DNA of 64,000 bases from Kiritimatiellia bacterium. GTDB taxonomy: Bacteria > Verrucomicrobiota > Kiritimatiellia > RFP12 > UBA1067. The notes below the pieces were generated by a model. That model did not search any database and was not told the DNA's origin. It saw nothing but the letters and a program-made list of their open reading frames with translations. Of the stretch, positions 1,228 to 19,470 are shown piece after piece. Where the stretch lies: the NCBI GenBank assembly GCA_024694365.1, contig JAILJX010000099.1, forward strand, positions 6,250-70,249. The letters are read 5' to 3'. The position numbers were made by a program, and so were the translations under genes. How positions within the stretch are numbered: the first letter of the stretch is position 1; every line of letters begins with the position of its first letter.

Positions 1228-1473
1228 ATGGCTACAGCTAAAAAGGCACCCGCGAAGAAAGCTCCCGCCAAAAAGGCGGCCGTAGCGGCGAAGAAGGCCC
1301 CCGCGAAGAAGGCGGCTCCGGCGAAGAAGGCCCCCGCTAAGAAGGCGCCCGCGAAGAAGGCCCCCGCGAAGAAGGCGGCCCCCGCGAAGAAGGCGCCTGC
1401 GGCGAAGGCGGCTCCGGCGAAGAAGGCGGCCCCCGCGAAGAAGGCGCCTGCGAAGAAGACGGCGAAGAAGTGA
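1228..1473 (+). CDS. histone H1-like / AKKA-repeat nucleoid-associated protein (81 aa)
   Basis: MATAKKAPAKKAPAKKAAVAAKKAPAKKAAPAKKAP...KKTAKK is almost entirely Lys/Ala/Pro, built from (P)AKKA(A) repeats as in bacterial H1-like proteins (Hc1/AlgP type). AAGGAT lies 8 nt upstream of ATG 1228. The track start at 1126 is a TTG inside the putative promoter. Confidence 0.8.
   Translation: MATAKKAPAKKAPAKKAAVAAKKAPAKKAAPAKKAPAKKAPAKKAPAKKAAPAKKAPAAKAAPAKKAAPAKKAPAKKTAKK
1237..1470 (+). repeat. degenerate tandem 15-18 nt coding repeats (GCGAAGAAGGCSCCC-like)
   Basis: Visible reiteration of gcgaagaaggcggcccccgcgaagaaggcgcc units through the whole H1-like ORF. Confidence 0.8.
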
Positions 1474-2741: not shown

Positions 2742-3252
2742 TTCGACCTCCGTTTACCCTTATTACTACTACATTTACTACTACACTCCGTCACGCCCGA
2801 CCACTGTGACACCCCTTGTTTCATTGGTTGCCTTCGCATGGCTAGAACAGGCGGCTTCGTTCTAGCAAAAGGTATTATTCACCACGAATCGCGGCAACAC
2901 CCGATGCCCAATGCCCAGCGCCGAGTTTAGAGGACTACGAATGGCGCCCGCTGAACGGGATTGCCGAGCGGGAGGGTTGCGCAACATTCTACACGCCTAC
3001 GCCCACATCAGAATAAGCCCATTGATGTCAACTGAGACCCGGCGTCACTGGCGCACCCGCCAGGGTTTGTTTCCGTACTAGTTTCAGAAACCAGATATCT
3101 GGACTTGATATATCGCGTAGAAATATTCCATACTGTACGGCACGAATTCGCTGTGGCGCACCATCTTCATCTTTGCAGAAAAAGAAGAAAGTTTGGATGA
3201 GCCTGCCGCGCTTTTCGTAAGATTCATCCGGAAGCCAAGAAAGGAGCAGCCC

Positions 3253-3708
3253 GTGAAGAGATGCAGATGCAAAAGCGAAATATGGAACCTGATACTGGAA
3301 CAGGAGGCCTCAGGCAAGTCGAAGGCGGACTTTGCCGCTGAACGTGGCATCCCTGCCAGTACATTCTTCTACTATGCAGCTCACAAAAGCCGTTACGATC
3401 CCATCAACATAAAGCCGAAAAGCCAGGGTAAGCGATACCACGGCAGACCATTGCCGCGCGTCCGGACCTGGGGCGACCGCCTGACGATTCATGAGCGCCG
3501 CTGCCTGGCGGTAGGGATTCTCCTCCACGAATCAGAGATGGCCCGACTCTATTACAGCAGACCCTTCACCGTGAGCGCGGGTGCTTTTGCGCTGGCAGAG
3601 TATGGCCTTTATCCAAGCAAAAAAACAATCGCAGGAATGCTGGTCGGGCTAGGAGTTCTGCCGGCGCAAGGAAAGGAACATGAAAATGGCAAAGTGTCTA
3701 ACGCCTGA
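3253..3708 (+). CDS. small HTH-domain protein (transposase OrfA-like HTH), paralog 1
   Basis: GTG 3253 is preceded by AAGGAG (3241-3246). EIWNLILEQEASGKSKADFAAERGIPASTFFYY is an HTH-like segment. It is a clear paralog of the next ORF. Confidence 0.6.
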   Translation: MKRCRCKSEIWNLILEQEASGKSKADFAAERGIPASTFFYYAAHKSRYDPINIKPKSQGKRYHGRPLPRVRTWGDRLTIHERRCLAVGILLHESEMARLYYSRPFTVSAGAFALAEYGLYPSKKTIAGMLVGLGVLPAQGKEHENGKVSNA

Positions 3709-4087
3709 AGAAATATGGCAGCTCATCAAAGAGCAGGAGGCCTCCGGAAAATCAAAGACCGCATTCGCCGCAGAGCGCGGCATCAGCGCTCACCGGATGC
3801 GCTCCTATGTAAGGAACCGCTTCAAGTACGATCCGCGCTATGCGGATTTTCGTCCGAAGCGCCGCTCTGCCAACAGGAAACCCAAGGGGCCGATTAGAAG
3901 CAATAGAATGAGGCGGTTCATGTGCGCAGGCATTCTGTTCTACGAAAACCGCGACTCCATCAAGTATGTCGGACATCCGCTGTCGTTCAAGAACTGCGTC
4001 GGCGTGCTGAAGCAGAACGGCTACAGCCCCAATGTCGAATTCATCCGGGAGACGATGCAAAAGCTGAGCATCCCCGTGGTGGGATAG
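3680..4087 (+). CDS. small HTH-domain protein, paralog 2
   Basis: EEIWQLIKEQEASGKSKTAFAAERGISAHRMRSY plus ...RRFMCAGILFYEN... align with paralog 1 (EIWNLILEQEASGKSKADFAAERGI..., RRCLAVGILLHES). Overlaps paralog 1 by 29 nt. Confidence 0.6.
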   Translation: MKMAKCLTPEEIWQLIKEQEASGKSKTAFAAERGISAHRMRSYVRNRFKYDPRYADFRPKRRSANRKPKGPIRSNRMRRFMCAGILFYENRDSIKYVGHPLSFKNCVGVLKQNGYSPNVEFIRETMQKLSIPVVG

Positions 4088-4117: not shown

Positions 4118-5020
4118 TCAGTCTTTGTAGGTGTGGTTTATGCTCGTGAACACTATGCGGCCGACCTCGATTCCTCCATCCGGCGAAACCGCAACCGTCA
4201 AGCTCGGCGCCGCCTTGTGGGCGCTGCCCGTCAATCTTACGATGATGTTCCTGCATATCTCTTCGCGAGCGCCTAGGCTCTTGTCAAGAGTGCCCAGCAG
4301 CAGGTCGAGCCAGACTCTCAGCGTCTTTGCCATATCCGGGCATTCACGCTTGTCTCCGTCCACCGGGTGATTCCCCAGATAGAGCATCCACACGCACTCG
4401 CCCGGAGCGTCAACCCAGAATGGCTGATCGCCCAGTTTTCTGCACGCCTCGGATATCTCCCGGTGGATTCCATCGATTTGCTTCTCTACATCATCTCCGG
4501 CCCCACCCCGGATGAGAGAGAAGCTAAGCTCCTTCTCCGGCGCCCCCATCAGCGGATCGCCGTTCGCAGAGGGCTCTTCAATCGCGTCTTCCGCGTCTTC
4601 GCCTCCATCCTCGCCCCACTGCCTTGCAAAGACAATCCTCGATGCTTCATCGCCCCCGTAAGCAAAGCGGGCAAGGCTCAGGAATGGGGACGCGTAGTCG
4701 CCTGCACTCTCCAATTCGATTTCAACCTCGCGGCTGTTCTGGCCGTCGGCCTTGAGCGAGTCCTGAACCTCCATCACCTGCATAAGGAACCATCTCTTGA
4801 CGACGTCTTCCATGGCGTCGTATCCGCATATGTCGCCGCCCTCGGGCCGGCCGAGGAAATACTCGAACCAGGAACACTTGCCCTTGTCCGTCGGCCTCAC
4901 TTTGTTCCCGCCAAGCGCCTTGCACGCCCGGATGATCTTGTCTTGCGAGGCTCCGATCTCCTTGAAGTATTCTTCAGGGGTCTCGCAGAGCGATATTGTC
5001 ACTTGCACAGTCTTCTTCAT
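4118..5020 (-). CDS. hypothetical acidic protein with internal domain duplication
   Basis: 300-aa ORF. Its halves align by eye (ACKALG..GKCSWFEYFLGRPEGGD..ASRIVF versus ACRKLG..GECVWMLYLGNHPVDGD..VGRIVF). No family recognised. Confidence 0.6.
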   Translation of the reverse strand: MKKTVQVTISLCETPEEYFKEIGASQDKIIRACKALGGNKVRPTDKGKCSWFEYFLGRPEGGDICGYDAMEDVVKRWFLMQVMEVQDSLKADGQNSREVEIELESAGDYASPFLSLARFAYGGDEASRIVFARQWGEDGGEDAEDAIEEPSANGDPLMGAPEKELSFSLIRGGAGDDVEKQIDGIHREISEACRKLGDQPFWVDAPGECVWMLYLGNHPVDGDKRECPDMAKTLRVWLDLLLGTLDKSLGAREEICRNIIVRLTGSAHKAAPSLTVAVSPDGGIEVGRIVFTSINHTYKD

Positions 5021-5335: not shown

Positions 5336-6115
5336 TTACAGCTCTACCATCTTACCCTCGAAGCCGCCGAATTTGACGGCCTTCTCCTGTATGAGGCGCC
5401 AAGCCTTGCGGCGGAATGTGTTTGCAGACGAGTATCCATACCAGTCCGCAAGCTGCTCGAACGAAGCGCCCTGCATGCGGGACTCGAACATCACTTGCTC
5501 ATGGTACGTAAGGGACATCATGAAGTTGAGGTAATCCATCCTGAAGTACAGCCTGCGGAATCCTCCGCGGGAACGGTCCTCCAGCATCTCTTCGGAAGCC
5601 AGGCCGCGGGCCTGGGCCTCGACGATATCCATGGTCGTGATCGGCACGAGTCTCGCCGTGCGCTTCTGGGCGCACTCCTTGCGGTGTTCGTCTATGAGAT
5701 AATGCTCGATGGCTTCAATGAGATACGTCGAACGCTTTGTCCCCACCTCGGGGTTGAAATACGGTAGCGCCTTCAGCGCCGCATACCCCATTGCCGCCTC
5801 GTGGCATGTCCTGTCGCACGGCTGGATGCAACCCAACGCAACCAGAAGATTCGACTTTTTGCGGATGTAACCGGAAATCTCCTCGAGCGCCACTAGCTGC
5901 TCTGCCTTGCTTATCGTGAGACATGCGTCATTTTCCCGTCTGCTCCATCCGCTTTTGAGCGTACCGGCCGGGCGGCTTTCGCTTGCGCGCTTATGACGGA
6001 CAAAGGCCCCGCAAAGAATCTCCTCCAGCTCTGGCTCATGGCTGAAGTTCTCAAAAGCGGCTATTTCCGCAGCCTTTGCCGCAGCGGCGCGGCGGTAGTT
6101 CATGTGGTCGCTCAT
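5336..6115 (-). CDS. sigma-70 family-like factor (region 2 and region 4 like segments)
   Basis: STYLIEAIEHYLIDEHRKE resembles sigma region 2. The C-terminal LTYHEQVMFESRMQGASFEQLADWYGYSSANTFRRKAWRLIQEK resembles the region 4 HTH. ATG 6115 lies 2 nt after the stop of the upstream small ORF; the track start 6124 is a GTG. Confidence 0.55.
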   Translation of the reverse strand: MSDHMNYRRAAAAKAAEIAAFENFSHEPELEEILCGAFVRHKRASESRPAGTLKSGWSRRENDACLTISKAEQLVALEEISGYIRKKSNLLVALGCIQPCDRTCHEAAMGYAALKALPYFNPEVGTKRSTYLIEAIEHYLIDEHRKECAQKRTARLVPITTMDIVEAQARGLASEEMLEDRSRGGFRRLYFRMDYLNFMMSLTYHEQVMFESRMQGASFEQLADWYGYSSANTFRRKAWRLIQEKAVKFGGFEGKMVEL

Positions 6116-6117
6116 GA

Positions 6118-6321
6118 TCAGCACACTCCATGAAGCATCTGGCGTTCAATCTGCAAATAGACCCACTCCGTCCGTCTGGTGATCGAGAGGCCATTGCGCC
6201 TCGCACCCCGACAAGAAAACATCGGCCGCTTTTTCAGCGCCTCGACGTTTTCCACCTCCATGCGGGAACTTATAAGCCCCGCGCCGCCGATATGTCTGAC
6301 GGTAATTATCGTCTTTTTCAT
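6118..6321 (-). CDS. small hypothetical protein (67 aa) coupled to the sigma-like gene
   Basis: MKKTIITVRHIGGAGLISSRMEVENVEALKK.... Its stop sits 2 nt before the sigma-like ATG. No family recognised. Confidence 0.4.
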   Translation of the reverse strand: MKKTIITVRHIGGAGLISSRMEVENVEALKKRPMFSCRGARRNGLSITRRTEWVYLQIERQMLHGVC

Positions 6322-6468
6322 TTTTTATTCCTTCCAGGACTCCGCGCGTTCCCGGACATCGGGTTCGTCACATCGAGTCTTCAAAAGTGCGGTATATTGG
6401 GGGCAAAAAGGCAAAAAAACCCCAACTGAAGCAAGCCGCAGACACGGCTTTTCAGAAGAAAAAGACAA

Positions 6469-6497
6469 CAAAAAAAGCGAATCCTCAGAGGATTCGC
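6469..6497 (-). terminator. rho-independent terminator ending the giant-gene operon
   Basis: On the minus strand gcgaatcctc-t-gaggattcgc is followed by T7 (plus-strand A run 6470-6476), about 40 nt after the stop at 6539. Confidence 0.7.
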
Positions 6498-6538
6498 TCA
6501 ACTATAAAAAATTTTATCTTTTTTTGGACGTTGTGGTT

Positions 6539-9523
6539 TTATTGGGGGTAGCCACGACTGTCGCCCGGCATTTTCGCCCCCATTTTTCGCATCTGTTCCG
6601 AAGTCGCATTCCTCACCAATCCCTTTGCGTCCATTGCATCGCCTTTATGATGTGCGGCGCGGTATTTTTCAGCGCACGCCCACATCGCCGGGCCATTGTT
6701 CGTCTCAAGCGCCTGCAGGAATCCCTCCGGAGAGTGATCCCCCTTGCGCCAACTCGTTATCGTGCTTTCCGATTTCACTCCGAACAATTCCATCAGTGCG
6801 GCGTTTGTGAAGAAACTCCTACCTTTAGGAGGATTGTGGACCGCCTCGGCGATATGGCGCACCGCTTTGGGCGACAATTCCTCGACAACCATATGGATCG
6901 GGTTGTTCTCGGTCCCCAGGCGCATTGGCAATGCAGACGCCTCCCGACGCCCTTTGGCAATCAGGGATTCCTCGTATTTGATCTGCTCCTGCCGCTTTTT
7001 CCGCTCTTCCGCAGCCTGATTCAACGCCCTGATTGACGCGGACATCTTTCCGATGACGTCGCACAGGTACCTTTTCTTGTATTCGTCGTGGCGCTCTTCC
7101 TCCGTCCAAAGCTCATCAGGATCCTTTCGCCATTCTTTCGCCTCCTCCGGGAAATACTCTTCGGCCGTCGTTGTCAGAAACGCTATCAAATGCTCTTCCG
7201 CTCCGTCCCGGATTCGGAACCCTTTGACTATATATGCACGCTTTATCCGCAGATAGTCATAATACAGGTTTTTCCATTCAACATGAGGGTCTTCTTCTAT
7301 GTATTTCACTACCCTTGCGTCACCGCCGGCATCGGTCAGTTCCTTGTCGGTGACTTCCGGGAAAGGTTCGAAAAGGTTCAGTGCGTCGTCTGCGCTTTCG
7401 GGAGCCGTCAGCGCAGGTTCACACCCTTCGATGTCGGCATCCCCTTTTTCAGCGAAGAATGGACTTTGGCTTCGCGCCAGATTTATCCTCTCCTCATCCT
7501 TCTGAGCCTGCTCCCGGAAAGCTGGACTAGCGCTTCCGAGCTCCATATAATCGTCGTCCTCGTACTCCCACGTTATGTTTCCGGCATACAAAACGCGTAT
7601 GTCCTTGGTCCATTTTCCGTCGAAAATCGCTATTGCCGCATCGCGGCAGCAATCCCTGAGCCCGGACAAAAGTTCATGCCGCACACGTCTTTTCACCGGG
7701 CACCCATCGATCTTCTGCGTCAAAACCCTGTTCTCCGCAAGCCACCGTCTCGCAACCGCGATCGACCTTGAACGGACGCGTTCCGAAAGGAAGATCAAGT
7801 ACGTGTCAAGCGTATTGCGGAGATTGCTCCATGCCCCTTCACAGCGATCCGAATCGTCCTCATACAGTTCATAATCGTTTATCCCCGACAAAAAAGCCAT
7901 CACCCGTATGAACATCACCCCTCCGAGCATCCTCCACTCTTCAGCGCGCATCGAAGCCTTCGCAATCCTTGCAAGCATGTCCAGGCACCGGTAAAGTCTC
8001 GTCTCCGCCGCCGGGCACAGGAACACATTCCCGTCTTTCGTCAACTCTCGCAGTTCGGCATGTATATCTCCAAGGCTGTCGGGCTCCGAAGAGCACCGCG
8101 GCAACTCTTTTTCCGAGAGGTCGCAAAAGGTCTGAATCATCCGGCGCTCCAGCTCATTCAGCTTCGACGCCTCTTTAGGGTTCGCGTCGCCTTTCCACAT
8201 GGGTGTATAGCATGACGTCTCTGAAAAGTCCCTGTAAGCGCGCCAGGCGATCCACGACGGTTCAAATAGGGCGCATTTGACGTCTCTTACAAGCCAACGG
8301 AACAATCCATCCCAACATTCGTTGAAAAAAATGAGCGGATCGCGCAGCACGGCATATTCGGACTCCGTGCCGCCAACATACGCGAGCCTTTTGTAGTAGT
8401 CGCCCCTCATAACGTCAAACGAAGGTGCCAGTATGGAGCTTCCATCCCTCCAATCGAACTGCCGAAACGCCTCCTCCCGAATGGATCCGTGTCCGTCAAC
8501 TGAATCCCTTGCGTATATCTTCAGCGAGGATATGGCATCGTGGATTTTTCTTACGACACCCCCCATTTTCCGGCGATCGTCCTCATATGGCAGATCCATG
8601 TCAAGCGCTTCATCATGCTTGCCCATGCCCATCAATGCCCAAAACCTCTCGTATCTTGCGGCCAGAGATCCAATCTCAGACATGCGGGTCTCGTCAAAAC
8701 GTTCAAGATAGACATTTTTGCTCATGCTTCCACTCCTGGTATCGTTGATGAAATACAGCCACCCGAGGCGGTCGCAGCACCGCCCCTTTCGCGGCGCCCT
8801 CTCGCACCCGTAAGCGTCTTCAAACGCATATCGCCCCAGTTCGTTTCGCGTAACCTCTCCGTAATCGAGCTTGCCGCGGTCGACGACCAACGTTCGGCAA
8901 AGATAGTCCGTCAAATCCCGGAGCCTAGACTTGAACTCATCCAGACTGCGCTCTATGGCGCAACTGTCCATTTCTCCATCACCGAAAACGGATTCGGCTT
9001 CATGGTGCAGGGCGTTCACCGCTGCGCGGGCCGAGCCGATTTCCGCGGCGCCGCCACACTTAGCCTGCAGGACGTCAAACACATCCGTCCAAACCGAAAG
9101 AAGATCCTTCCACAGGCATTTGGCCGTCTCAATCTTGCCGTTTTCCGGCTCGCCCTTTACGCTGTAGCCGTGCAGCTCGCAAAGGAAATCTGCGGAATAC
9201 ACATAAAGGACATCAAAGATATCGATCGGGTCGAGCGCAAGGCGAGCAAGAAACGGGTAGCGGTCTCTCGGCCCCATTTCTCTGGCCACAAGCAAATCGC
9301 ATTTCGCCTCCACCTCCACGGAAGACATCTCCGCATCTGCACCTTTCTTCAGACCGACCAGCCGTTCGGCGTTGGCGCAATGCTTCCGTCTCAGGTCGGC
9401 CTTCTCCGAATCATCATAGACTGCGTGCTCCAGAGTGTACAACATCAGGATTTTGGCGAGACTGTACACCGCAGTCTCTATCTCGCCGATCATCTCGTCC
9501 GCTTCTGTCACAGCTTCCGGCAT
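6539..9523 (-). CDS. giant orphan protein 2 (about 994 aa) with conserved C-terminal HTH-like module
   Basis: Long clean ORF. The C-terminus ...NPPKGRSFFTNAALMELFGVKSESTITSWRKGDHSPEGFLQALETNNGPAMWACAEKYRAAHHKGDAM... is shared with the upstream giant protein. The start is uncertain: ATG 9649 would overlap the upstream gene by 68 nt, so ATG 9523 (MPEAVTEADEM) is preferred. No P-loop or catalytic motif seen. Confidence 0.7.
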   Translation of the reverse strand: MPEAVTEADEMIGEIETAVYSLAKILMLYTLEHAVYDDSEKADLRRKHCANAERLVGLKKGADAEMSSVEVEAKCDLLVAREMGPRDRYPFLARLALDPIDIFDVLYVYSADFLCELHGYSVKGEPENGKIETAKCLWKDLLSVWTDVFDVLQAKCGGAAEIGSARAAVNALHHEAESVFGDGEMDSCAIERSLDEFKSRLRDLTDYLCRTLVVDRGKLDYGEVTRNELGRYAFEDAYGCERAPRKGRCCDRLGWLYFINDTRSGSMSKNVYLERFDETRMSEIGSLAARYERFWALMGMGKHDEALDMDLPYEDDRRKMGGVVRKIHDAISSLKIYARDSVDGHGSIREEAFRQFDWRDGSSILAPSFDVMRGDYYKRLAYVGGTESEYAVLRDPLIFFNECWDGLFRWLVRDVKCALFEPSWIAWRAYRDFSETSCYTPMWKGDANPKEASKLNELERRMIQTFCDLSEKELPRCSSEPDSLGDIHAELRELTKDGNVFLCPAAETRLYRCLDMLARIAKASMRAEEWRMLGGVMFIRVMAFLSGINDYELYEDDSDRCEGAWSNLRNTLDTYLIFLSERVRSRSIAVARRWLAENRVLTQKIDGCPVKRRVRHELLSGLRDCCRDAAIAIFDGKWTKDIRVLYAGNITWEYEDDDYMELGSASPAFREQAQKDEERINLARSQSPFFAEKGDADIEGCEPALTAPESADDALNLFEPFPEVTDKELTDAGGDARVVKYIEEDPHVEWKNLYYDYLRIKRAYIVKGFRIRDGAEEHLIAFLTTTAEEYFPEEAKEWRKDPDELWTEEERHDEYKKRYLCDVIGKMSASIRALNQAAEERKKRQEQIKYEESLIAKGRREASALPMRLGTENNPIHMVVEELSPKAVRHIAEAVHNPPKGRSFFTNAALMELFGVKSESTITSWRKGDHSPEGFLQALETNNGPAMWACAEKYRAAHHKGDAMDAKGLVRNATSEQMRKMGAKMPGDSRGYPQ
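6656..6772. repeat. 117-bp tract identical to 9675-9791 (copy A)
   Basis: ggcgcggtatttttcagcgcacgcccacatcgccgggccattgttcgtctcaagcgcctgcaggaatccctccggagagtgatcccccttgcgccaactcgttatcgtgctttccga is read identically at both places, in direct orientation, 3019 bp apart. Confidence 0.9.
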
Positions 9524-9581
9524 TTTGGAATCCGCAGTCCCTGTCGCGCCAAAGGCATTGCTGGCAAAGCCCCACAATACG

Positions 9582-12500
9582 CTATCCGCGGCCCCCGCGC
9601 AGCATATAGATTTCTTCCTCGGATAGATTCCGCAAAACCCCGCTGACATTCATAGCGTCCCCTTTGTGATGTTTGGCGCGGTATTTTTCAGCGCACGCCC
9701 ACATCGCCGGGCCATTGTTCGTCTCAAGCGCCTGCAGGAATCCCTCCGGAGAGTGATCCCCCTTGCGCCAACTCGTTATCGTGCTTTCCGACGTCACGCC
9801 GAACAACGACATCAGAATTCTGCCGGTGAAAATGCTCCCGCCCTTCGGCGGATTGCGCAACGCAGCGGAAACCTCCTGCCGCCCGGTTTTCGACAGCCCG
9901 TCGAGAATCACATGCATCTTCCCGTCTCCGGAGAGCAAACCGGCGGCCGCCGCGACACCTTCTTTCCGCCCCCGCGCAAGCAGCTCCTCCTCCCGGCTTG
10001 CGGCGCCGGACGCACTTGAAGTTTCCTTTTGCGGATCGCCCCCCTTCCGTCCGCTGGCCGGTTTCGTCCGCTCCAGAACGAGCGCGCTTACGTCCAGCAA
10101 TTTTTCCTTGAAGGTGGAGAAGAGGCTCCTGTATTCGGTCAAATCGACCGCTTCGTCGCCGAGCAGAAGGCGCCGCTCGAACATGCCGGTCAGCCCCGAA
10201 AAAGTATCTTGCAGCCTCGCCACAAGCGCAGAATCGTCAACATAGTCAGGCAAGTCGTCGATGAAGCACTGCCACGCGCATATGCAGTCGACCTTGGCCT
10301 CCGATATCTTTTGGCGGTATTCTTCAGAAAGGCAACACTCTCCGGCCGCCTTGCGGCACCCGAAGAATTCCTCCGAAAATGGACGGAGCGCCTGCGACAT
10401 GAACAGGCTGCTCGGGATGACGAATTCATGCCGCTTTATTCCGCGCTCCTCCAGATGTGCGAATATGCGCTCCAGCTCCCCTTTTTGATGCGGGAATGCG
10501 TTCAATATCTCGCTCTTTCTGCCCTTCGGGATGGCTATCTTCGTCGGTTCCCGGCTGTACAGGCCCCTGTTTATGTCCCACATCAGGGCGCTATCCGCGC
10601 CCTTCAAGATTTCCAGCATGCATTCGCACAGCATCTTTCTGGTGGAAGCGCCCGCCTCATCCCTCTCCTTCTCGCGCATCCGCGTCTCGATCCACTCGGC
10701 CTTTGCGGCATTGTGGGCCAATTTGACGAACCTGTCCCGGTCTTCCGCAGAAAGAACAGGCCGGCCTTCGCCAACACTTCCATTCAGCATTGACATGGCT
10801 TCGTACCAAAGGCGGCTGGCCTCGCCGGCTTCCAGGCACCGTTTCCCCCTTCTGTCGCAATACCGGTTGAGCGCCTCCATGAACATCTGTCTCGCGCGAG
10901 CGACCCACCTGCTGACGATACGAAGCGTCTGACAGCCATCGGGGGAACCGTCCGTCGCATACGAGAAATGAACATCCAACGACAGGAAGCGTGCGACGTC
11001 AAGCTCGTATGTGAACGAGTCCTGTCCGGTTCCGTCGCTGAACGCCAAAGAGGAAACCGCAGCATCGTACTGCAGCCTGCCGGCGGTCTCGAGAAGGCTC
11101 CGGACAACGGAAGGCTCCAGCGGCAAGCCGTCCCGGTCGTTTCTCGCGTACCACGCGTTCCTGGCCGCCATCCTCCTCTTCCTGCATTCCGGCGGCTCAC
11201 CCTCGCCGTCATCTGGCATGCCATCGACAATTCTCTGCTCCAGCTTCTCAAGGCGGTATCCAACATCGTACCAGGCGGTCTCGAATTTTTCAAACACATG
11301 TTCCAGCATACCTTTCTTCCCCAAGGGGGCAAAGTCCCCTTCTCCGCGCGGCAGCATGGCAATCGCCTTCTGGAACAAATCCCGCGCTTCATCGACACAG
11401 TACCCCTCCACCAGACTTTCGAGCTTCGAAAACATCATCTCCGCCACCGCGGCTATCTCGTGCATGCGACCGGAGGAGATTTCGCTTATCGATTCGACTC
11501 TGGAAAGAAATCTCTTCAGGTGGAGCAGCACAGCTCCCCGCCCCAGCATTCTGGCCGAGGGAAGGGCCGCCATTCCGTCGCGGCCGATCGCTGCAACGCG
11601 TCCGCCGTAAAAGGGTTCCGCCCGGTGCAATGTCTTTGCAAAGTCCACAATGGACAGCAGCAATGCATCCGCGCTAGGAGACACGGGCAAATCAGGCGAC
11701 TCCATGTCGGCAATGACCTTGATCCGGTTGCGGGCCTGCTCCTCATAGCGCTTGGCGTCAGTTTCCTCCCTGGTCAGCGGCTGCTGGTCCGGCCGCAGAC
11801 CCTGTGACATGGCATTTTTCACGGCAATCTGCATCTTGGAGACTCCCGCGTACAGCGACTCGGCGAACGACAGCGTGTCGCCCGAGCAATGGTAGAACGA
11901 TTGCGCGCTCCCGCAGGAATTCCACTTGCGCTCGATATCGTTCCACTCGTCCACCAGCGCCCGATCCTCCAACCTAGCGGCGAGATCCCCTCCGGCACGG
12001 ACGAGCGAATCGACATAAAACTCGACATTGTCCATCGAATCCCACCATCGGGATTGCCTGGACGAGAAATGCACCTCCTGCTTCGATCCGTCAGGAAGGA
12101 GATAGAAGTAGCCGGGCTCGTCCGGGGCGTCTTCGTGATGGCTGGCCCAATCGAAACAGAAGAGTGTATATCGCGGGAGCTTCAGCGCTTCGGCAAGAAC
12201 CGGAGCCCAATTGTCCATCCTGAAACTCACCCTACCATCGCCCATATCGTCCAGCGCCTTGCTCAATATTTCCATCAGCACCTTCGTAGGCTCCATCTCG
12301 GAATATTCCACCGCGGAGAAGGTTTCGTCCGCCAATTTCCGCAGATTTGAAGCCTTCTTCTCCTCGTAATCCCTGACAACACCATTGAGTTTGGAGAAGA
12401 GATCGTCATACCCCGCCGGGACGACCGCGTAGAGCAGATTCAGCAGTTCCTCGCCTACGCAAACGTCTTTGTCGTTCAGGCACCAGGCCGGGATTTTCTC

Positions 12501-13094
12501 CAATGATTCCGCCCCCCACGCAATGTACTTTCCCGCCACGGGGTCTTCGTCTGGGAGCCCGTTTTCCCTCAGCCATTTCTTTCGCGATGCCGCAAGCCTG
12601 CCCTTCCAGTCCACCCCCTTCAGTTTGAACAGCTCCAGCGACACCTTCTGTTTCCGCGCCGCGTCCCCAGCATGGGAGAGCGCCTCCCCATAGCGGGCCG
12701 CGTTCTCCGCCGCGACGCCAGCGGCGTCCTCCGCCGTCGCTGCGCACTCCAGCGATTCCAGCGCACCCTTCGCCTGCAGCCACGATTCCGCGGCATCGTC
12801 GATATCCATCTCGACGGCGTTTCTGGCCTGCTCTTCGCAGTACCTGAGAAGCAGACACTTCACCTCCGCGTGGGCCGCCTTAAGATCCCCCTCCCGCGCG
12901 GCCGGATCGACAATAAAATCCCGGACGAGCCCGTTTTTCAAAAGCAGGCCGTCCGGAGCTGCAAGTTCAGCCCCCGCCGACCTGACAGCATTGCGCACGA
13001 GCATGCAAATCCGCCCGGCGTCGATGTCGCCCGTAGACGAATCCGCGCCCCCCGGATCGCGGGACGGCAGCACGAAGCTCTCCTTATCCGGCAT
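9582..13094 (-). CDS. giant orphan protein 1 (1170 aa) with conserved C-terminal HTH-like module
   Basis: Long clean ORF starting 21 nt after the PRiA4_ORF3 gene stop. The C-terminus ...NPPKGGSIFTGRILMSLFGVTSESTITSWRKGDHSPEGFLQALETNNGPAMWACAEKYRAKHHKGDAM... is shared with giant 2. The rest shows no family, Walker motif or nuclease motif recognisable by eye. Confidence 0.75.
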   Translation of the reverse strand: MPDKESFVLPSRDPGGADSSTGDIDAGRICMLVRNAVRSAGAELAAPDGLLLKNGLVRDFIVDPAAREGDLKAAHAEVKCLLLRYCEEQARNAVEMDIDDAAESWLQAKGALESLECAATAEDAAGVAAENAARYGEALSHAGDAARKQKVSLELFKLKGVDWKGRLAASRKKWLRENGLPDEDPVAGKYIAWGAESLEKIPAWCLNDKDVCVGEELLNLLYAVVPAGYDDLFSKLNGVVRDYEEKKASNLRKLADETFSAVEYSEMEPTKVLMEILSKALDDMGDGRVSFRMDNWAPVLAEALKLPRYTLFCFDWASHHEDAPDEPGYFYLLPDGSKQEVHFSSRQSRWWDSMDNVEFYVDSLVRAGGDLAARLEDRALVDEWNDIERKWNSCGSAQSFYHCSGDTLSFAESLYAGVSKMQIAVKNAMSQGLRPDQQPLTREETDAKRYEEQARNRIKVIADMESPDLPVSPSADALLLSIVDFAKTLHRAEPFYGGRVAAIGRDGMAALPSARMLGRGAVLLHLKRFLSRVESISEISSGRMHEIAAVAEMMFSKLESLVEGYCVDEARDLFQKAIAMLPRGEGDFAPLGKKGMLEHVFEKFETAWYDVGYRLEKLEQRIVDGMPDDGEGEPPECRKRRMAARNAWYARNDRDGLPLEPSVVRSLLETAGRLQYDAAVSSLAFSDGTGQDSFTYELDVARFLSLDVHFSYATDGSPDGCQTLRIVSRWVARARQMFMEALNRYCDRRGKRCLEAGEASRLWYEAMSMLNGSVGEGRPVLSAEDRDRFVKLAHNAAKAEWIETRMREKERDEAGASTRKMLCECMLEILKGADSALMWDINRGLYSREPTKIAIPKGRKSEILNAFPHQKGELERIFAHLEERGIKRHEFVIPSSLFMSQALRPFSEEFFGCRKAAGECCLSEEYRQKISEAKVDCICAWQCFIDDLPDYVDDSALVARLQDTFSGLTGMFERRLLLGDEAVDLTEYRSLFSTFKEKLLDVSALVLERTKPASGRKGGDPQKETSSASGAASREEELLARGRKEGVAAAAGLLSGDGKMHVILDGLSKTGRQEVSAALRNPPKGGSIFTGRILMSLFGVTSESTITSWRKGDHSPEGFLQALETNNGPAMWACAEKYRAKHHKGDAMNVSGVLRNLSEEEIYMLRGGRG
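9675..9791. repeat. 117-bp tract identical to 6656-6772 (copy B)
   Basis: Same string as copy A. It encodes the core of the shared C-terminal module in the same phase. Confidence 0.9.
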
Positions 13095-13115
13095 ATCCTC
13101 GCCCCCAGATCTACC

Positions 13116-13700
13116 TTACGGAATGGAGTTGAGGACGAAGTTCACGAGCCTGACGACCCTGACGGCCATCTCGGGCTCGCTCGGCGTGCGAAGGACGTTT
13201 TCCGGCGCAAGCCCGTGCGCTTCTGCAAGCCACTTGACGCACTCAGCTGCCCTCTTGCTGCGCCGCTTCTTCCCAAGAAGCTCAACTATGCCCTCGGTGA
13301 AGCCGAACGCCGCGGAGTCCTCTATCAGGTCCGGGCCCTTGACGTCGAACTCGACATCCTCCAGGTGTTCGACCCTTCCCTCGCACACGACGTCCACCTC
13401 GTTGTCGTCGCCAAGATCATAAGTGTAAATGCACCTGTCGCCTTTCTTCCCGAGAAGAGACTCTATCGGAGTCCTTGCGGCATACTTCACGCCCGGCATT
13501 GCGAAATCCCCGTCGGGGCCCTCCCTGGTGTACAGCTTCTCATCCCCTTCGAACATGTATTCGTGAATGTTGAGCCATCCGAATGCGGTCTGAATCGCAA
13601 AGTGCAGGAACGAGAGGGAGAGATTGCCCGGAACGGCGATCCGGCGAAAGAAGTCGCCGTGTTTGTACTTAAGGAGAAGTTTGACGATCGGTTTTTTCAT
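13116..13700 (-). CDS. plasmid pRiA4b ORF-3-like (PRiA4_ORF3) domain protein
   Basis: FFRRIAVPGNLSLSFLHFAIQTAFGWLNIHEYMFE matches the family signature (W/F-R-R-I-x-V-P..-L..LH..IQ.AFGW...H...F). ATG 13700 (MKKPIVKLLLKY) is preferred over the track start 13733. Confidence 0.8.
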   Translation of the reverse strand: MKKPIVKLLLKYKHGDFFRRIAVPGNLSLSFLHFAIQTAFGWLNIHEYMFEGDEKLYTREGPDGDFAMPGVKYAARTPIESLLGKKGDRCIYTYDLGDDNEVDVVCEGRVEHLEDVEFDVKGPDLIEDSAAFGFTEGIVELLGKKRRSKRAAECVKWLAEAHGLAPENVLRTPSEPEMAVRVVRLVNFVLNSIP

Positions 13701-13722
13701 GACGTTTGACTTTCTTGCCAGT

Positions 13723-13752
13723 ATTATACACAATACCGCTCGAGTTAGTCAA
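13723..13752 (-). promoter_or_regulatory. sigma70-like promoter with extended -10 for the PRiA4_ORF3/giant-gene operon
   Basis: Minus strand reads TTGACT (13752-13747), 18 nt, TATAAT preceded by TG (TGTATAAT = 13730-13723), 22 nt upstream of ATG 13700. The -35 overlaps the recombinase stop codon. Confidence 0.5.
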
Positions 13753-15337
13753 CTGCACAAAACTGCCCCGAAGAAATAGATATATTACATTTGAGGCCAA
13801 GCAGTTTCTCCTGCCCCGTCCAATCGGATGCGGCAAGGCGCATCAGCCTGTTGACGGTCAATCCGGCGGGCGCCCTCCCGGACATGACCGCCTTTATTAT
13901 CCTGGGCGAAACGCACGCCATCGAGAGAAGCCGTCCAAAGTACGTCCTCTCTATGCGGTAGTGGCGAGCCATTTCGCTTACGGACTTGAACCTCCCCGAA
14001 TCCAACATTCTCCAGAACGCCCGCGCCCGCGCATATGCAACCAAAATGGGATCCTTCGCATTGCCGGACACAAGCATGTTCTTCCCGCCGTTGCGTCTCA
14101 AGGAGGCAGGAACTGTCTTCACCTCGCCGCTCTGGAACACAATGTCTATCGAGTGCGGGTTGACTACCACCTCCCTGAAAAGCCTCCTGAAGAGCGTTTT
14201 CTTCTCCTCAGGCGGCATCGACGCCCAGAACACGTCCGGATCGGCCGCACGTGCCGCCTCTGTGCCCTTCACGCGCGACGCAAGGGGAAATGCCGCATCC
14301 TCCAGCAAAGCCTCGACGGGGCCCTCAGGAACGCGCCTCACGGGGCATGTCGACACGGCCCGCCTGCTGTCGGCGCGATCCATGTAGTAACCATACTTGG
14401 CTCCGGTCGTCTTCTTGCGCGTCCATGAATAGACCATGGCCGAGCCGCAAGTCCCGCAGCGGAGAAGTCCGTTCAGAATCGCTCCGGAGGGAGACTGCGC
14501 GGTTGCACGCGGACGGCTTTTCCTTTCGAGGGCCGCCCCGACGCGGTCACGAAGCTCATCGCCCACAATCGCCTCCTGTACGCCCTTGAGAGCCGTGCCT
14601 TCGCACATTATCAGGCCAGAGCTCGCGACATTTCTCAGCACATAGCCGACGCGCCTAGGATTCCACCCGCCTTCTACACCGGGACGCCAAGGAAGCCCCG
14701 CCCCGTTGAGCCTTGCGGCCACCGCCTTGCACGAGCCCGTTTCGGCGTAAAGCCTGAAGAGCTCGCGCACCGTCCCGGCGGTTCTTTGATCGGGGACAAG
14801 CCTCTTGTCGCACACAGCGTATCCAAACGGCGCTATGCCGCCCGTCCACATGCCCTTTCTGCGCATGGCCACAGTCTTGTCCCGCACGCGCTCGGATATC
14901 ATCTCCCGCTCGTACTGGGCGAATGTCATGAGCATGCCCATCATCGCCCGACCCCAGCCTGAAGGGCCGATGAAATCCTGGGTGACGGAGGCTAGCGAGA
15001 CACGGTGTTTTTCCAGAAGGGATAGAAACTCCGCAAAATCCGCCATGCTGCGAGATATGCGGTCTATCTTGTACACGGCGATCACGTCGACGAGCCCGGC
15101 CTCTATGTCAAGAAGGAGCCGTTTCATGGCAGGGCGGTCCATGTCGGTGCCGCTGAATCCTCCATCGTCGTAGCGCTCCGGCAAAAGCCTCCACCCCGCC
15201 TCGCGTCTCGCCTCGATGTAGCTCTTGCATGCGGCATACTGGGCGTCAATCGAGCTGAAGTCTTTCTCTAGCCCGATATCGAGCGATTTGCGGGTGTACA
15301 CGGCGCACCGGATTGTATTCGGCGCCCCCTCCGTCAC
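13745..15337 (-). CDS. large serine recombinase (resolvase/invertase N-terminal domain plus recombinase and zinc-ribbon region)
   Basis: IRCAVYTRKSLD...DRPAMKRLLLDIEAGLVDVIAVYKIDRISRS...TFAQYEREMISERVRDK...GG.APFGY, later CGTCGSAM. The GTG at 15337 overlaps the DUF2924 stop (GTGA), suggesting coupling. The track start 15448 would overlap by more than 100 nt. Confidence 0.9.
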   Translation of the reverse strand: MTEGAPNTIRCAVYTRKSLDIGLEKDFSSIDAQYAACKSYIEARREAGWRLLPERYDDGGFSGTDMDRPAMKRLLLDIEAGLVDVIAVYKIDRISRSMADFAEFLSLLEKHRVSLASVTQDFIGPSGWGRAMMGMLMTFAQYEREMISERVRDKTVAMRRKGMWTGGIAPFGYAVCDKRLVPDQRTAGTVRELFRLYAETGSCKAVAARLNGAGLPWRPGVEGGWNPRRVGYVLRNVASSGLIMCEGTALKGVQEAIVGDELRDRVGAALERKSRPRATAQSPSGAILNGLLRCGTCGSAMVYSWTRKKTTGAKYGYYMDRADSRRAVSTCPVRRVPEGPVEALLEDAAFPLASRVKGTEAARAADPDVFWASMPPEEKKTLFRRLFREVVVNPHSIDIVFQSGEVKTVPASLRRNGGKNMLVSGNAKDPILVAYARARAFWRMLDSGRFKSVSEMARHYRIERTYFGRLLSMACVSPRIIKAVMSGRAPAGLTVNRLMRLAASDWTGQEKLLGLKCNISISSGQFCAVD

Positions 15338-15741
15338 CGCGCACCTCCCGAAACGTTGAACCACCGCCGCCCGGAGTCGTGCATGCCTGTTATCGCCTTC
15401 ACGCACGCCGTAAGGGACGGATAAGTCTTTCCGCCCATCTCGAACCACCCCCGCCCGACGGCCTTTGCCTCGTAGACCTTTCCTTTGTACTTGCGCACAT
15501 AGGTGACGCCGCGGGCCGGTAGCCCTTTCCTGCGGACTAGCCGCGCCTCCCTCTTCAAGATAGGATCGCCTTCCGCAATACGGTCGAGAGTCGCCGCCTC
15601 TATCGCGTTTAGACCTCCGCTTAGCTCCTCCTGAATCCGCTGCGATATTCTCCTTCTGGCCAGGACGGGGCCGGGGAAAGGAGATTCTTTGCCGAACCGC
15701 TCCGCATATTCAGCCACAAGTTTTTCCATTGCCTGCTTCAT
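15334..15741 (-). CDS. DUF2924-like protein (usual partner of serine recombinases)
   Basis: LPARGVTYVRKYKGKVYEAKAVGRGWFEMGGKTYPSLTACVKAITGMHDSGRRWFNV fits the DUF2924 C-terminal pattern (...Y.SLS..A..ITG....G..FF). The start is uncertain (ATG 15741/15753/15729). The track start 15843 would run through the upstream terminator. Confidence 0.75.
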   Translation of the reverse strand: MKQAMEKLVAEYAERFGKESPFPGPVLARRRISQRIQEELSGGLNAIEAATLDRIAEGDPILKREARLVRRKGLPARGVTYVRKYKGKVYEAKAVGRGWFEMGGKTYPSLTACVKAITGMHDSGRRWFNVSGGAR

Positions 15742-15804
15742 TACGCCGTACATAATGCCATACTTTCTCAAAACACGCAAGCGCATAAGGCAGGATATTC
15801 CGGA

Positions 15805-15838
15805 CAAAAAAGACCGGAGATGCATCAATCTCCGGTCT
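15805..15838 (-). terminator. rho-independent terminator of the SIR2 operon
   Basis: Perfect 11-bp stem agaccggagat/atctccggtct (15811-15821 / 15828-15838) followed on the minus strand by T6 (plus-strand A run 15805-15810), 27 nt after the SIR2 stop. Confidence 0.75.
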
Positions 15839-15864
15839 CGCAAAACAAATGCATGCTGACATAG

Positions 15865-18800
15865 TCAACCTACCCAATCATTCATCGGCAACCAATCCAA
15901 AGCGTTGCGCATCTCGGCAAAATCGTTGTCCGCCTCAAACAGCCGCTTCCAGCGCGACTTTAAATCCTCCACCTTGATTCGCCTACGCTTGGCCTCTTCC
16001 ATAGAAATTACCGAAATACGGGCTCCATAAACGCCCATAACCAATCTGTCTTCAACCGAGCCACCTAACGACGCAAACTTCAAGCGGTCGAGATAAGAGC
16101 CCAGCAATTCGCACATCTCAACAAAATCCGCTTCCCGAAGGTACCGGGTCGCACTCCCGACCAATATACAAACTTGCGTCACATCAATCGCCCTTGCATA
16201 CCGGATGTACGACAGAAACTGTGTCGTCACCTTGGGACTCCGATCCTTTAGCGCGCGGGCGACAAAATTCATCCCACAGTCACACAAGAACCGGACGCCA
16301 GACACCAAATCCCTAAACGCTCCGTCGGCAAACTCGCTGACAAGGCCTTTGCCTTTGCAAAATGACAACATGTAATCGTGCAGGCCTGCCCCGACGCCCG
16401 CCTTGTACACGGTGCGCAACACTCTTCCATCTCGGCGGGGGATTTCGCCATCGTTTTTCCGTAGCACGCAAACCAACGCCTGGAATACAGCGATGAGATT
16501 TTCAACATCGCACTGAGCTTGAGTCACCGTCGTCATGTCCACTCGCGCTCCTGACGCTGCATCGGCCTTGTACCTGCTGCAACACCCTTCCCATGCGCCG
16601 GCAAATCTTGCCAGCGTCCGCCCGACGGCCTCCGCTACGTCATGCTCTGGAAATTTCGCCTCCGACAACACGGAAAGAATTTTTATCGCCTCTCCGCAAT
16701 CCATGAGAGGATCAATCTTCGCGAGCCTACCCAGACAAAAGCCGATCACGTCTTTTCGCTTGCAGACTCCTGTCAACATTCCCGGGTGCAGAAGCTTAAG
16801 CAGCGCAGCCGATTTCCCTTCGACCGCCGCGACAATTGCAGCGCCCATCCCCGCAGCCACCGAAGGGGGCAAACGCCACATCTTTCCGGAGATTGAAGCA
16901 CTACACGCGGCCCACATCCTGCGCCTGCCGTCCTGTGAGTACAGGTCTTCCAAAACCCTTGACCATTTGCAGTGCATGCCTATCCGCTTGGCATTCTTCC
17001 TGATGTAAGCGCCCCATCTGCCGTAGATCGCGCGCATCGGATGCTCGCATGCATATTCTCGGAGTACAACGAGGTAAGGGGGCGGGCAAGGACAATCCTG
17101 ACAAATCGGCAACAAAGGCTCCAATTCATCCTTTTGCAAGGAGTCGACCAGCAGGCTGAACGCTTCATCAAGGACAGGGCCACGTTTTTGGGCGAAATCG
17201 GAATCATAAAGCGAAACAAGCGTGGCGGCGACATTTCTCTTGGTCTCCAAAGCTGCAATTCGGCAGCAGAGGCAGCCCAAGGCCAAGACGCGACAGGCCG
17301 TCATGTCTCCAGAGGCCTGGTTTTTGGATCTGTCGATGCGAATACTTTCAACCAATGAGTTCGCGATGATATTTGCGCTGCCTGAAGATATTCTCCCAAC
17401 CATAGCCCTGCTGAAAACACCTTTCTTGTCAACCGGGATGCCAACCAGGGACAGGACATGCATAGCCTGACCCAACGGCAGATTCAGAAAGCCGGCCACA
17501 AGCTTCTCGGCGGAAATCCCCTTACAAGCCAACTTGTCAACAAAGCGCAACGGAACTCCCGCCTGCTCCATGGAGACGAGCAGCGCCGAAGTAACCGGAT
17601 ATGAATGGTCGCGCCACGAGAAGCCGGGAATCGTAATTGTTTCACCGACACGGAAAGACCTTTTGTCGCCACGCTCTTTCCCCGGCACTTCGAGTTCATC
17701 CTCGCTCAAGCGCTCCGCCAGCGCACCCAGTTCATCGCGAAAGGAACATTTGTGCGCCCTTAGGATCGCCCACCGGTCCAGATCATGGTATTCTTCGCGG
17801 ATGTGGACCTCACCAGTCGAGCCTTCCGCCCTGCCAGCCTCCAAACTCGACAGATAGCACAAGGTCATGACGATGGATTCCTGCGAAGCTCGCCTCATAT
17901 CTTCGCCGCCATATTTGTCCAGGCCGCAATCGCGGATTGCGGAAACGCTCTTCATGAATTTTTCACTCTGGCATTGATCGCACGACACTGACATCTCAAG
18001 GGCCGTTTTCTGCGCCACCCACCACCCGTCTGTCGCGGCAACCGACCATTCGCGAAGCAAGGTCTCAGCGCGGTCTAGCTTGTTAAGATATATCGCGCAT
18101 AGCACTCGTTCTTTGCTTAATTTATGCCGCTGCTCGGAATTGAGGAGTTTGGAACTGTCTGAGAGATGATTCTCGATCCGTTCCCATTCCGAGAAATCAC
18201 CCCCCAGTCGGCATGATTCCATCAAGTATAGAAACAGGTCCACTGATTGGGGGCTGTCCTTTCGGGCCCAAGCCTCCCTCGAAAAAAGCGCATTCAGTTT
18301 TGGCGAAAAGGATAGCGCGTAATGGCATTTCTGAAGCACCCATGCCATCTCACACACAAACGCGTGCAACTCGGCAGTCGAGTCTGAGCGAAGAAATTTA
18401 AATGCGCACCTTATAAGTGACGTCGCCTGATGCCAGAGTCGCCGAAGGTATTCATTGGGCAGCATCTCCCATCCCGGATAGGAATTCCGCTGGGTCTTCA
18501 ACTTCATTATCACTTTTCTGAACGCCGACTTCTGCTCTTCACTCGTCGCCGTCAGGGATTCCATTACGCCTCCTGTTGCCTCCACATCCGCATCTATCCA
18601 GCCCCGGCGCTTAACCCGACCTGCCAGCCCGTCAAGAAACATCCGCATGGCTTCTTTGTTTGGATCAGCGCACCCATGGACCATTTTGGCATAATTCACT
18701 ACGTGTATCTTCCGGCGCTCCAGCAATTTAATCTCCGACTTCCTGAACGCGAACTGTCCGATCAAATACACCTTGCAGCCGTTTTTACCCAAGACGTCCC

Positions 18801-19434
18801 TGATCCAGCCCAACCATCCGAGAAAGTTCGGATCCGTCCCCGAAAACCCGACCAGGCACAATGTGTTCTCCATCATGTCTTGTCTGACCGTATTGACAAA
18901 ACACGGGAAATCCAGCGGATATTTTCTGTAATCCTCCTTTGTTATCACATACGGCCTCCTCGCTGGCACATCTCCCCGAAAACTGCCGTGCAGTTTTATT
19001 ATCCTGGGAATATGCTCCTTGGGCAGATCGGACTCCCTCGTCACGAGCCCATAGCGACGATCCAGGACCTCATGTCTGGCTTTTTCCAACAAAGTGTCAT
19101 AATTCGTGGTCAGCACGTCCGCCCAAGGAAGCTTCAGGAGCTTGACATGGAAATCCAAATCAACTTTACGAGGCACCGCCGTAGTCTCAAGCACTGCATT
19201 GAGCGTCGACCGTTTCAACTCCGACTCGACTTCTTCAGCAAGATCAAGGATGTCGGAAGGCTTTTGGTCTTCACGCAAGCGCAAGACTTCGCAAAACTTT
19301 TTCGCCAATCCCCACCACAAGGGCATTTCAGGGTCGGAATTTCGGCTGAACCCGGCGCCGACGAGGACTACGGCGCGGTTCGCCATCAGCCGGTTGGCTA
19401 TGTAATCAATGTCGGCATCAATAGATTTGCGCAT
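15865..19434 (-). CDS. SIR2-family (SIR2_2-like) N-terminal domain protein with about 900-aa uncharacterised C-terminal region; DSR-like
   Basis: N-terminal motifs AVVLVGAGFSRNS, VLTTNYDTLLEKA, IIKLHGSF and CLVGFSGTDPNFLGWL are typical of defence-type sirtuin domains. ATG 19434 has GAGGT 8 nt upstream; the track start 19458 is a TTG. GC is visibly lower than in the left block. Confidence 0.8.
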   Translation of the reverse strand: MRKSIDADIDYIANRLMANRAVVLVGAGFSRNSDPEMPLWWGLAKKFCEVLRLREDQKPSDILDLAEEVESELKRSTLNAVLETTAVPRKVDLDFHVKLLKLPWADVLTTNYDTLLEKARHEVLDRRYGLVTRESDLPKEHIPRIIKLHGSFRGDVPARRPYVITKEDYRKYPLDFPCFVNTVRQDMMENTLCLVGFSGTDPNFLGWLGWIRDVLGKNGCKVYLIGQFAFRKSEIKLLERRKIHVVNYAKMVHGCADPNKEAMRMFLDGLAGRVKRRGWIDADVEATGGVMESLTATSEEQKSAFRKVIMKLKTQRNSYPGWEMLPNEYLRRLWHQATSLIRCAFKFLRSDSTAELHAFVCEMAWVLQKCHYALSFSPKLNALFSREAWARKDSPQSVDLFLYLMESCRLGGDFSEWERIENHLSDSSKLLNSEQRHKLSKERVLCAIYLNKLDRAETLLREWSVAATDGWWVAQKTALEMSVSCDQCQSEKFMKSVSAIRDCGLDKYGGEDMRRASQESIVMTLCYLSSLEAGRAEGSTGEVHIREEYHDLDRWAILRAHKCSFRDELGALAERLSEDELEVPGKERGDKRSFRVGETITIPGFSWRDHSYPVTSALLVSMEQAGVPLRFVDKLACKGISAEKLVAGFLNLPLGQAMHVLSLVGIPVDKKGVFSRAMVGRISSGSANIIANSLVESIRIDRSKNQASGDMTACRVLALGCLCCRIAALETKRNVAATLVSLYDSDFAQKRGPVLDEAFSLLVDSLQKDELEPLLPICQDCPCPPPYLVVLREYACEHPMRAIYGRWGAYIRKNAKRIGMHCKWSRVLEDLYSQDGRRRMWAACSASISGKMWRLPPSVAAGMGAAIVAAVEGKSAALLKLLHPGMLTGVCKRKDVIGFCLGRLAKIDPLMDCGEAIKILSVLSEAKFPEHDVAEAVGRTLARFAGAWEGCCSRYKADAASGARVDMTTVTQAQCDVENLIAVFQALVCVLRKNDGEIPRRDGRVLRTVYKAGVGAGLHDYMLSFCKGKGLVSEFADGAFRDLVSGVRFLCDCGMNFVARALKDRSPKVTTQFLSYIRYARAIDVTQVCILVGSATRYLREADFVEMCELLGSYLDRLKFASLGGSVEDRLVMGVYGARISVISMEEAKRRRIKVEDLKSRWKRLFEADNDFAEMRNALDWLPMNDWVG

Positions 19435-19470
19435 TTCCGTTCTACCTCGCGAAATCAAATCGACCCCGTT

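Follow-up and report, generated by a model that had tools for sequence, protein, structure and literature searches.

The minus strand of a 64,000-nucleotide (nt) stretch of Kiritimatiellia DNA, hereafter the window, carries three genes between a promoter-like site and a terminator-like hairpin (positions 6469-13752): one for a PRiA4_ORF3-domain protein and two for very large proteins, named here giant A and giant B. To which kind of system, if any, do they belong? The initial annotation, made by reading the sequence, treated them as one self-contained operon, in which two orphan giants would share nothing but a small C-terminal module reminiscent of a helix-turn-helix (HTH), and it proposed that a sensor/regulator or a conflict system might fit. 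Comparison with related loci leads to another delimitation: A and B represent, in the window, a hitherto undescribed array in which two or three tail-sharing giants follow one another in tandem. This array has long been carried by a family of serine-recombinase elements, where it lies beside a slot for anti-phage cargo. Below, we describe the array, its shared tail and its variable bodies, then the element around it, and finally weigh what the array might do.

A tandem array of giant genes

Two or three consecutive large genes, each with the tail at its end, are found in eight of the nine independent loci (window included). There are two tail-bearing genes in the window, L001/L002, L003 and L011, and three (A-like, B and a gene for a protein of 591-592 amino acids (aa), called C) in L004, L005/L013, L006 and L007, while the contig of L012 ends inside its second array gene. 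L005 and L013 were counted as one element because their B genes are identical, hence the total of nine loci. The variable large body on a constant small tail, which the initial annotation had seen in two genes only, is thus a recurrent layout. The opposite holds for the linkage between PRiA4_ORF3 and the giants, which had been designated beforehand as the test of the operon reading: no PRiA4_ORF3 relative occurs in any other related locus. The gene preceding the array instead encodes an HTH_26 protein in L003 and L012, a PD-T4-6-like kinase (behind a type I restriction–modification (R-M) system) in L001, a DUF3800 protein (PDC-M04A-like) in L004, and a 137-aa protein without family name (behind GajA and GajB) in L013. 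To judge from these gene orders, the PRiA4_ORF3 gene fills a variable slot as an accessory that can be exchanged, and is no defining component. Its product is a clear member of PF07929 (72 bits against a cutoff of 26.6, E 6.6e-20, residues 7-160 of 194), a family whose function is not established; in the literature, PRiA4_ORF3 and DUF2924 (see below) receive incidental mentions only, PRiA4_ORF3 being named in annotation lists.

Within the window, the open reading frame (ORF) of giant B is open over 6539-9649, while the called gene (P0002, 994 aa) begins at ATG 9523. The latter start was retained because the called product agrees with the N-terminus conserved across six giant B homologues (M1, E3 and T6). 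The genes are therefore separated by gaps of 21 nt (PRiA4_ORF3/A) and 58 nt (A/B), as first described, whereas the alternative of an overlap between A and B falls away. The two signals said to bracket the three genes were also recovered, though both are only predictions by pattern match: the promoter-like site agrees with the consensus at 11 of 12 positions and is the best of its region (7 sites, vs 3.2 +/- 2.3 in shuffles), is not a canonical extended -10 and overlaps the last codons and the stop of the recombinase gene, while the hairpin begins 40 nt past the stop of giant B. An Rfam scan of the window gave no match. Finally, the array genes evolve under purifying selection (dN/dS, the ratio of nonsynonymous to synonymous substitution rates, about 0.06-0.13, with dS near saturation).

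Relatives of the giants

The giants are not orphans, even though a word-seeded search with giant A returned A itself only. A full HMMER search with giant A across 1.84 billion cluster representatives yielded 54 proteins, and giant B has six full-length homologues (37-39% identity), while giant A is 37-38% identical to the first giant of L001 and L003. All these relatives derive from metagenome assemblies, and two of them (P0025 and P0017) lie on contigs too short for gene context. Elsewhere the searches, in libraries partly current to 2025-2026, came back empty or nearly so: neither a B relative nor the tail in the GTDB species genomes; no match for tail, A or B in IMG/VR; no match to the giants among GenBank phages and PLSDB plasmids; and a single locus in a scan of JGI metagenomes, which is the same element as L005.

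Homology to a characterised family had been named as an outcome that would count against the initial annotation, and none emerged. Searches of Pfam, NCBIfam, PADLOC and PHROGs returned no match for A, for B or for 53 relatives, and sequence and profile searches of the PDB with A, B, the A family and the B family gave nothing significant. To our knowledge, no described system has this giant-array architecture. Since, in addition, no giant component belongs to any of the described families searched, the protein families and the array architecture appear to be new, a label that does not cover their function.

The shared C-terminal tail

As first noticed, A and B share their C-terminal module only: the BLASTP alignment is limited to the last 128 residues (60% identity, E 4e-46), and a profile-profile comparison of the A and B families matches the tail alone (probability 99.7%). 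The two tails had also been described as nearly identical over some 110 residues. This is true of about 50 residues, which are encoded by an exact 117-nt repeat (Table 1), but not beyond them, and the sequence flanking the repeat has a nucleotide identity of about 52%. Among the tail pairs of all other loci, an exact match never exceeds 17 nt. Because the repeat is confined to the window, the near-identity is not a family feature; it stems from a recent local gene-conversion tract in the lineage of the window.

A Hidden Markov Model (HMM) of the tail delineates a domain of about 102 aa, present in 38 of the 59 collected proteins, and in every carrier (38/38) it stops 2-14 residues short of the C-terminus; the remaining ORFs of the loci gave no further match to the profile. 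Its consensus reads ..vDGys.eGr......NTK..E.d.FSD.NL..LFgV..NTIANWRKG...PEGF..AFe..D..AM..CAEKYKA.R.K.DAMN.K...R..SEEQ. Tail subtype mostly tracks the position of the gene in the array: A-tails are 74-88% identical to one another, the B-tails of L001, L004 and L005 71-76%, and the C-tails of L004-L006 81-84%, while the A and B tails of one locus are usually 41-48% identical. The window (66%) and L011 (84%) are among the exceptions, their tails having been homogenised. Pattern scans with the full tail alignment were uninformative, the alignment being too diverse.

The initial annotation assigned the tail to an XRE/MerR-type HTH. Its HTH-like character is supported by several indications, while membership in either family is not. 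In the AlphaFold2 (AF2) model of giant A, the tail contains a helix (1091-1097), a 5-residue turn and a second helix (1103-1110), followed by more helices (block-mean pLDDT, the confidence score of the model, 78-89 over aa 1091-1150). The best PDB profiles are the HTH of lambda gpNu1 (E 0.48) and that of HigA2 (E 0.54), both non-significant. Likewise, a Pfam scan of 33 tails produced scattered sub-threshold HTH matches, i.e., HTH_3 in two tails (best E 0.019) and other families in one each, the best of all being HTH_Tnp_1_2 (E 0.0038, one tail), so that no HTH profile reached significance in either search. Set beside winged-HTH domains of the MerR/excisionase/lambda gpNu1 type and XRE-type HTHs (HigA2), the tail shows a core (NL..LFGV..NTI.NWRKG...P.GF) that aligns with the HTH of gpNu1 and with that of HigA2, a predicted helix-turn-helix followed by helices, and a basic charge. 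It differs from them by a C-terminal part of its own (A..YKA.R...DAMN.K...R..SEEQ) and by always terminating a very large protein. Altogether, the tail is a new domain with a predicted HTH-like core. As an indirect sign of possible DNA binding, it is basic: the median isoelectric point (pI) of the tails is 9.3, as opposed to 5.1 for the acidic bodies.

The modular bodies

In front of this tail, the bodies of the giants are almost all-helical mosaics of shuffled modules. HMMER matches to giant A separate into blocks (residues 28-460, 444-1021, 820-1010 and the tail, 1060-1165), which recombine variously in relatives of 84-1188 aa. For instance, P0010 is a hybrid of a C-like N-terminus with the middle and C-terminal parts of A, and module A-C (residues 825-1006) is duplicated in P0047 and P0029. 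A-C is both the most widespread and the best-predicted module of A (AF2 block-mean pLDDT 83-98, mostly >90). Module A-N2 reaches block means of mostly 75-95 over aa 220-430, and a profile search of the PDB found no relative of it. The second half of A-C weakly resembles residues about 130-210 of B: a profile built without B sequences matches the B family there (E 6e-12 to 8e-5, in a database of small size), which hints weakly that the A and B bodies share diverged helical units.

The AF2 model of giant A, computed from 32 sequences, is almost entirely helical and has a pLDDT of 73.7; over residues 820-1010, its block means rise to as much as 98. Compared to the PDB by Foldseek, it gave a best E of 0.16 and TM-scores of 0.10 or below. 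The model of giant B is poor (pLDDT 55.6), almost all helical and unfit for Foldseek. Regarding motifs, the initial reading by eye was accurate: neither A nor B has a Walker A motif or a transmembrane-like hydrophobic stretch, and no signal peptide-like stretch is found in the giants. When A and B were examined as possible STAND or AAA+ NTPase sensors, neither a P-loop nor a Pfam NTPase match was detected.

An integrative element with a defence neighbourhood

Upstream of the array in the window are genes for a large serine recombinase and a DUF2924 protein, the backbone of the element. They are 41-43% and 50% identical, respectively, to their counterparts in L003 and L007. Because these identities are about equal to those of A (37%) and B (37-39%), array and backbone have travelled together. 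The likely start of the recombinase is GTG 15337, which overlaps the stop of DUF2924 as GTGA. In L003 and L007, the single recombinase ORF of the window corresponds to two genes, a recombinase and a ParB-HTH-like ORF of about 133 aa (L003 9989-11684), so that the two appear to be fused in the window.

The serine recombinase reported in the initial annotation is present, while the sigma-like factor that it also placed beside the array is a weaker case, as the protein misses both thresholds (Sigma70_r2, 17.3 bits vs 24; TIGR02937, 23.5 bits vs 42.9). Nevertheless, a gene for about 205-262 aa follows the array at the same position in five of the six loci whose flank is visible: besides the window, these are L003, L005/L013, L006 and L007 (about 205-233 aa). 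Among the loci scanned, its product weakly resembles a sigma factor in the window, L003 and L007, and is unmatched in L013. In the related loci, this downstream gene is followed by small genes, DUF2924 and the large serine recombinase, of which the order in the window (DUF2924, recombinase, PRiA4_ORF3, A, B, sigma-like gene) is a circular permutation. To judge by gene content and order, these loci belong to one family of small integrative elements, whose backbone consists of DUF2924 and a large serine recombinase and which usually include a sigma-like gene. A search around the island for att-like direct repeats gave none, an absence that is to be expected with a serine recombinase.

The backbone of the window adjoins a 1197-aa Dsr2-like SIR2 protein (PADLOC Dsr2, E 1.6e-144; residues 8-852 against model positions 4-867 of 1222). 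It scores 472 bits with NCBIfam, for a cutoff of 1400, and its C-terminal third differs from Dsr2; the protein may represent a Dsr2 variant whose sensor end is of another kind. Known or candidate defence genes also lie beside other arrays: the PD-T4-6-like kinase and the type I R-M system in L001, GajA/GajB (Gabija) in L013 and the PDC-M04A-like DUF3800 gene in L004. Moreover, a tail-less A-like protein, P0009, adjoins a PDC-S01 ATPase in the accessory slot of a prophage (L008). The conflict-system logic put forward at the outset is consistent with such a neighbourhood. The array occupies the same kind of location as the defence cargo and islands of integrative elements (DSR2, Gabija, PD-T4-6, PDC-S01) and is likewise rare, patchy, borne by mobile elements and quickly diversifying. 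It differs from this cargo in that the giants have no PADLOC match and no recognisable effector or NTPase domain.

In L008 itself (7972-12926), no more than 3 nt separate a gene for a PDC-S01-type AAA_14/DUF4143 ATPase from the P0009 gene after it, and the prophage genes downstream encode Prim-Pol, a DEAD helicase, RusA and DUF3799. An ATPase/P0009-type pair is found on three contigs and may be a separate two-gene system.

Table 1. Features of the array, the element and their surroundings in the window.
Feature	Position	Strand	Remarks
Sigma-70/ECF-like protein	5336..6124	-	weak sub-threshold match; downstream of array
Terminator-like hairpin + T run	6465..6499 (hairpin 6499-6475)	-	11-bp stem, 3-nt loop; pattern match
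Giant B	6539..9523	-	994 aa; start ATG 9523 per homologues
Giant B tail domain	6584..6892	-	aa 878-980
Exact 117-nt repeat, copy 1	6656..6772	.	inside giant B tail
Giant A	9582..13094	-	1170 aa; acidic helical modular body + basic tail
Giant A tail domain	9603..9911	-	aa 1062-1164
Exact 117-nt repeat, copy 2	9675..9791	.	inside giant A tail
Module A-C	10077..10622	-	aa 825-1006; motifs FPHQKGE, EERGIKR, PFSEEFF
Module A-N2	11745..12617	-	aa about 160-450; small beta sheet; common to P0012-P0018
PRiA4_ORF3-domain protein	13116..13700	-	194 aa from ATG; Pfam PF07929
Promoter-like site TTGACT-18 nt-TATAAT	13723..13752	-	pattern match, 11/12 positions; region's best
Large serine recombinase	13745..15448	-	Resolvase + Recombinase + Zn_ribbon_recom domains (Pfam)
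DUF2924 protein	15334..15843	-	backbone partner of the recombinase
Dsr2-like SIR2 protein	15865..19458	-	1197 aa; adjoins backbone

Possible roles of the array

Our favoured reading, held tentatively, is that the tail-sharing giants form a module that is probably DNA-tethered and conflict-related. The tail would be a winged-HTH-like anchor that places each giant on a common target, most likely DNA or else a partner common to the giants, such as the sigma-like protein, and such a common anchor would bring two or three different bodies into one complex. The bodies might then be non-enzymatic surfaces for recognition or scaffolding, diversifying through module exchange, and the module would act in conflicts that oppose the element or its host to other mobile elements or phages. 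The prophage case (P0009) and the module shuffling both favour a conflict role. A more specific version, which we find possible but somewhat doubtful, is an enzyme-free multi-protein conflict system, in which the winged-HTH-like tail would tether two or three modular, rapidly recombining helical sensors to DNA or to the sigma-like factor nearby, and the recognition of an invader would alter transcription or block the invader directly. Several points weigh against our favoured reading. The giants show no catalytic, NTPase, nuclease or membrane motif, hence no candidate effector, and PADLOC-DB 2.0 models match none of A, B, the C protein, P0009, P0027 and P0036. The HTH-like assignment of the tail draws on sub-significant matches and one AF2 model. 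The related loci lie on short metagenome contigs, so that their context is incomplete, and adjoining a cargo hotspot is no proof of a defence role. Finally, the co-divergence of array and backbone would fit a role in the life cycle of the element just as well.

This last point leads to the main rival, according to which the giants would be life-cycle proteins of the integrative element (for example, DNA-bound regulators, or factors for replication, segregation or the control of excision) and the nearby defence genes unrelated cargo. We regard it as a possible explanation, though less likely than not. Besides diverging in step with the recombinase and DUF2924, the array has a fixed position in the circular order (recombinase, variable slot, A, B, (C), sigma-like gene, small genes, DUF2924), its tail, basic and predicted to be HTH-like, would recognise the DNA of the element, and the giants themselves match no defence model. 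Yet a tail-less A-like body sits next to a candidate defence ATPase in a prophage that is unrelated, the rarity and extensive module shuffling of the giants are unusual for core maintenance genes, and no replication, partition or relaxase domain was detected in them. The reading of the initial annotation, i.e., PRiA4_ORF3, A and B as one self-contained sensor/regulator system, has in its favour the tight spacing of the three genes, bracketed as they are by the region's best promoter-like site and a terminator-like hairpin that is strong. It is nonetheless improbable: it leaves the third tail-bearing giant of some arrays unexplained, and elsewhere the slot of PRiA4_ORF3 holds a kinase, an HTH_26, a DUF3800 or the 137-aa protein.

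Two further explanations concern the giants as delivered or structural proteins. Effectors of type IV secretion systems carry C-terminal domains that interact with VirD4, and the tail could similarly be a recognition signal for export or transfer, with the giants as delivered effectors. The logic of effector and polymorphic-protein repertoires is indeed the same, with a constant terminal domain on unrelated, recombining bodies encoded in tandem, here at the extreme C-terminus of many bodies that exchange modules. We consider this very improbable: in contrast to such repertoires, the array has neither toxin/immunity domains nor any nearby machinery (no secretion, conjugation or coupling-protein gene in the island or the related loci), the motif and predicted helices of the tail are HTH-like, and the giants have no signal peptide-like or transmembrane stretch. 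The idea that they are tape-measure-like structural proteins of a degraded prophage stems from Foldseek, where the top BFVD match of the A model is a tape-measure protein (E 1.6e-4). With a TM-score of 0.08 and a root-mean-square deviation (rmsd) of 41 Å, that fit is poor, and TM-scores of 0.10 or below combined with rmsd above 30 Å denote generic long-helix matches. As none of the 53 relatives has a PHROG match, GenBank phages and IMG/VR contain nothing similar, and no capsid, portal, terminase or tail gene adjoins the arrays, the structural reading is effectively refuted. A shufflon, or invertible cassette, was also envisaged and rejected, since all the genes are complete, co-oriented and endowed with their own start codon.

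If the array is a working conflict module, as we tentatively favour, its principle would be unlike that of the catalogued enzyme-based systems, namely large non-enzymatic modular proteins on one docking domain, and no fewer than four protein domains would be defined anew (the tail, A-N2, A-C and the body of C). Even if the giants serve the maintenance of the element, they mark a family of serine-recombinase elements in uncultured bacteria that had escaped notice and whose defence genes are of the Dsr2-like, Gabija, R-M and kinase kinds, and the tail profile offers a simple probe for these elements and their cargo hotspots.

Other features of the window

Downstream of the sigma-like gene, 4118-5020 (-) encodes a 300-aa protein with an internal tandem duplication, the two halves of about 113 aa being 28% identical (E 2e-13); searches of Pfam, NCBIfam, PADLOC and PHROG found no match to it. 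Where the island is presumed to end on the left, the adjacent ORFs 3193-3708 (+) and 3680-4087 (+), of 171 and 135 aa, are paralogous: they share a 75-nt stretch that is 73% identical and the motif EIW.LI.EQEASGKSK..FAAERGI, and match no family. Further out, in a flank of 61% GC that resembles the host chromosome, 1126-1473 (+) encodes a predicted histone H1-like DNA-binding protein with lysine/alanine repeats (AKKAPAKK...).

On the other side of the island, a surface-polysaccharide cluster extends over about 19500-55000 (-), with glycosyltransferases, epimerases, a sugar transferase, a Wzx-type flippase and a UDP-glucose dehydrogenase. Its segment at 33-45 kb has a GC content of 44.6% amid 53-63%, and a fusion of cytidylyltransferase and PEP mutase suggests a phosphonate decoration. 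Finally, 56705-63926 (-) forms a second block that resembles a mobile element. It encodes a tyrosine recombinase and another large serine recombinase, which is CcrB/XisF-like, as well as a helicase resembling RadD and a protein of 480 aa whose C-terminal part is a RusA domain.

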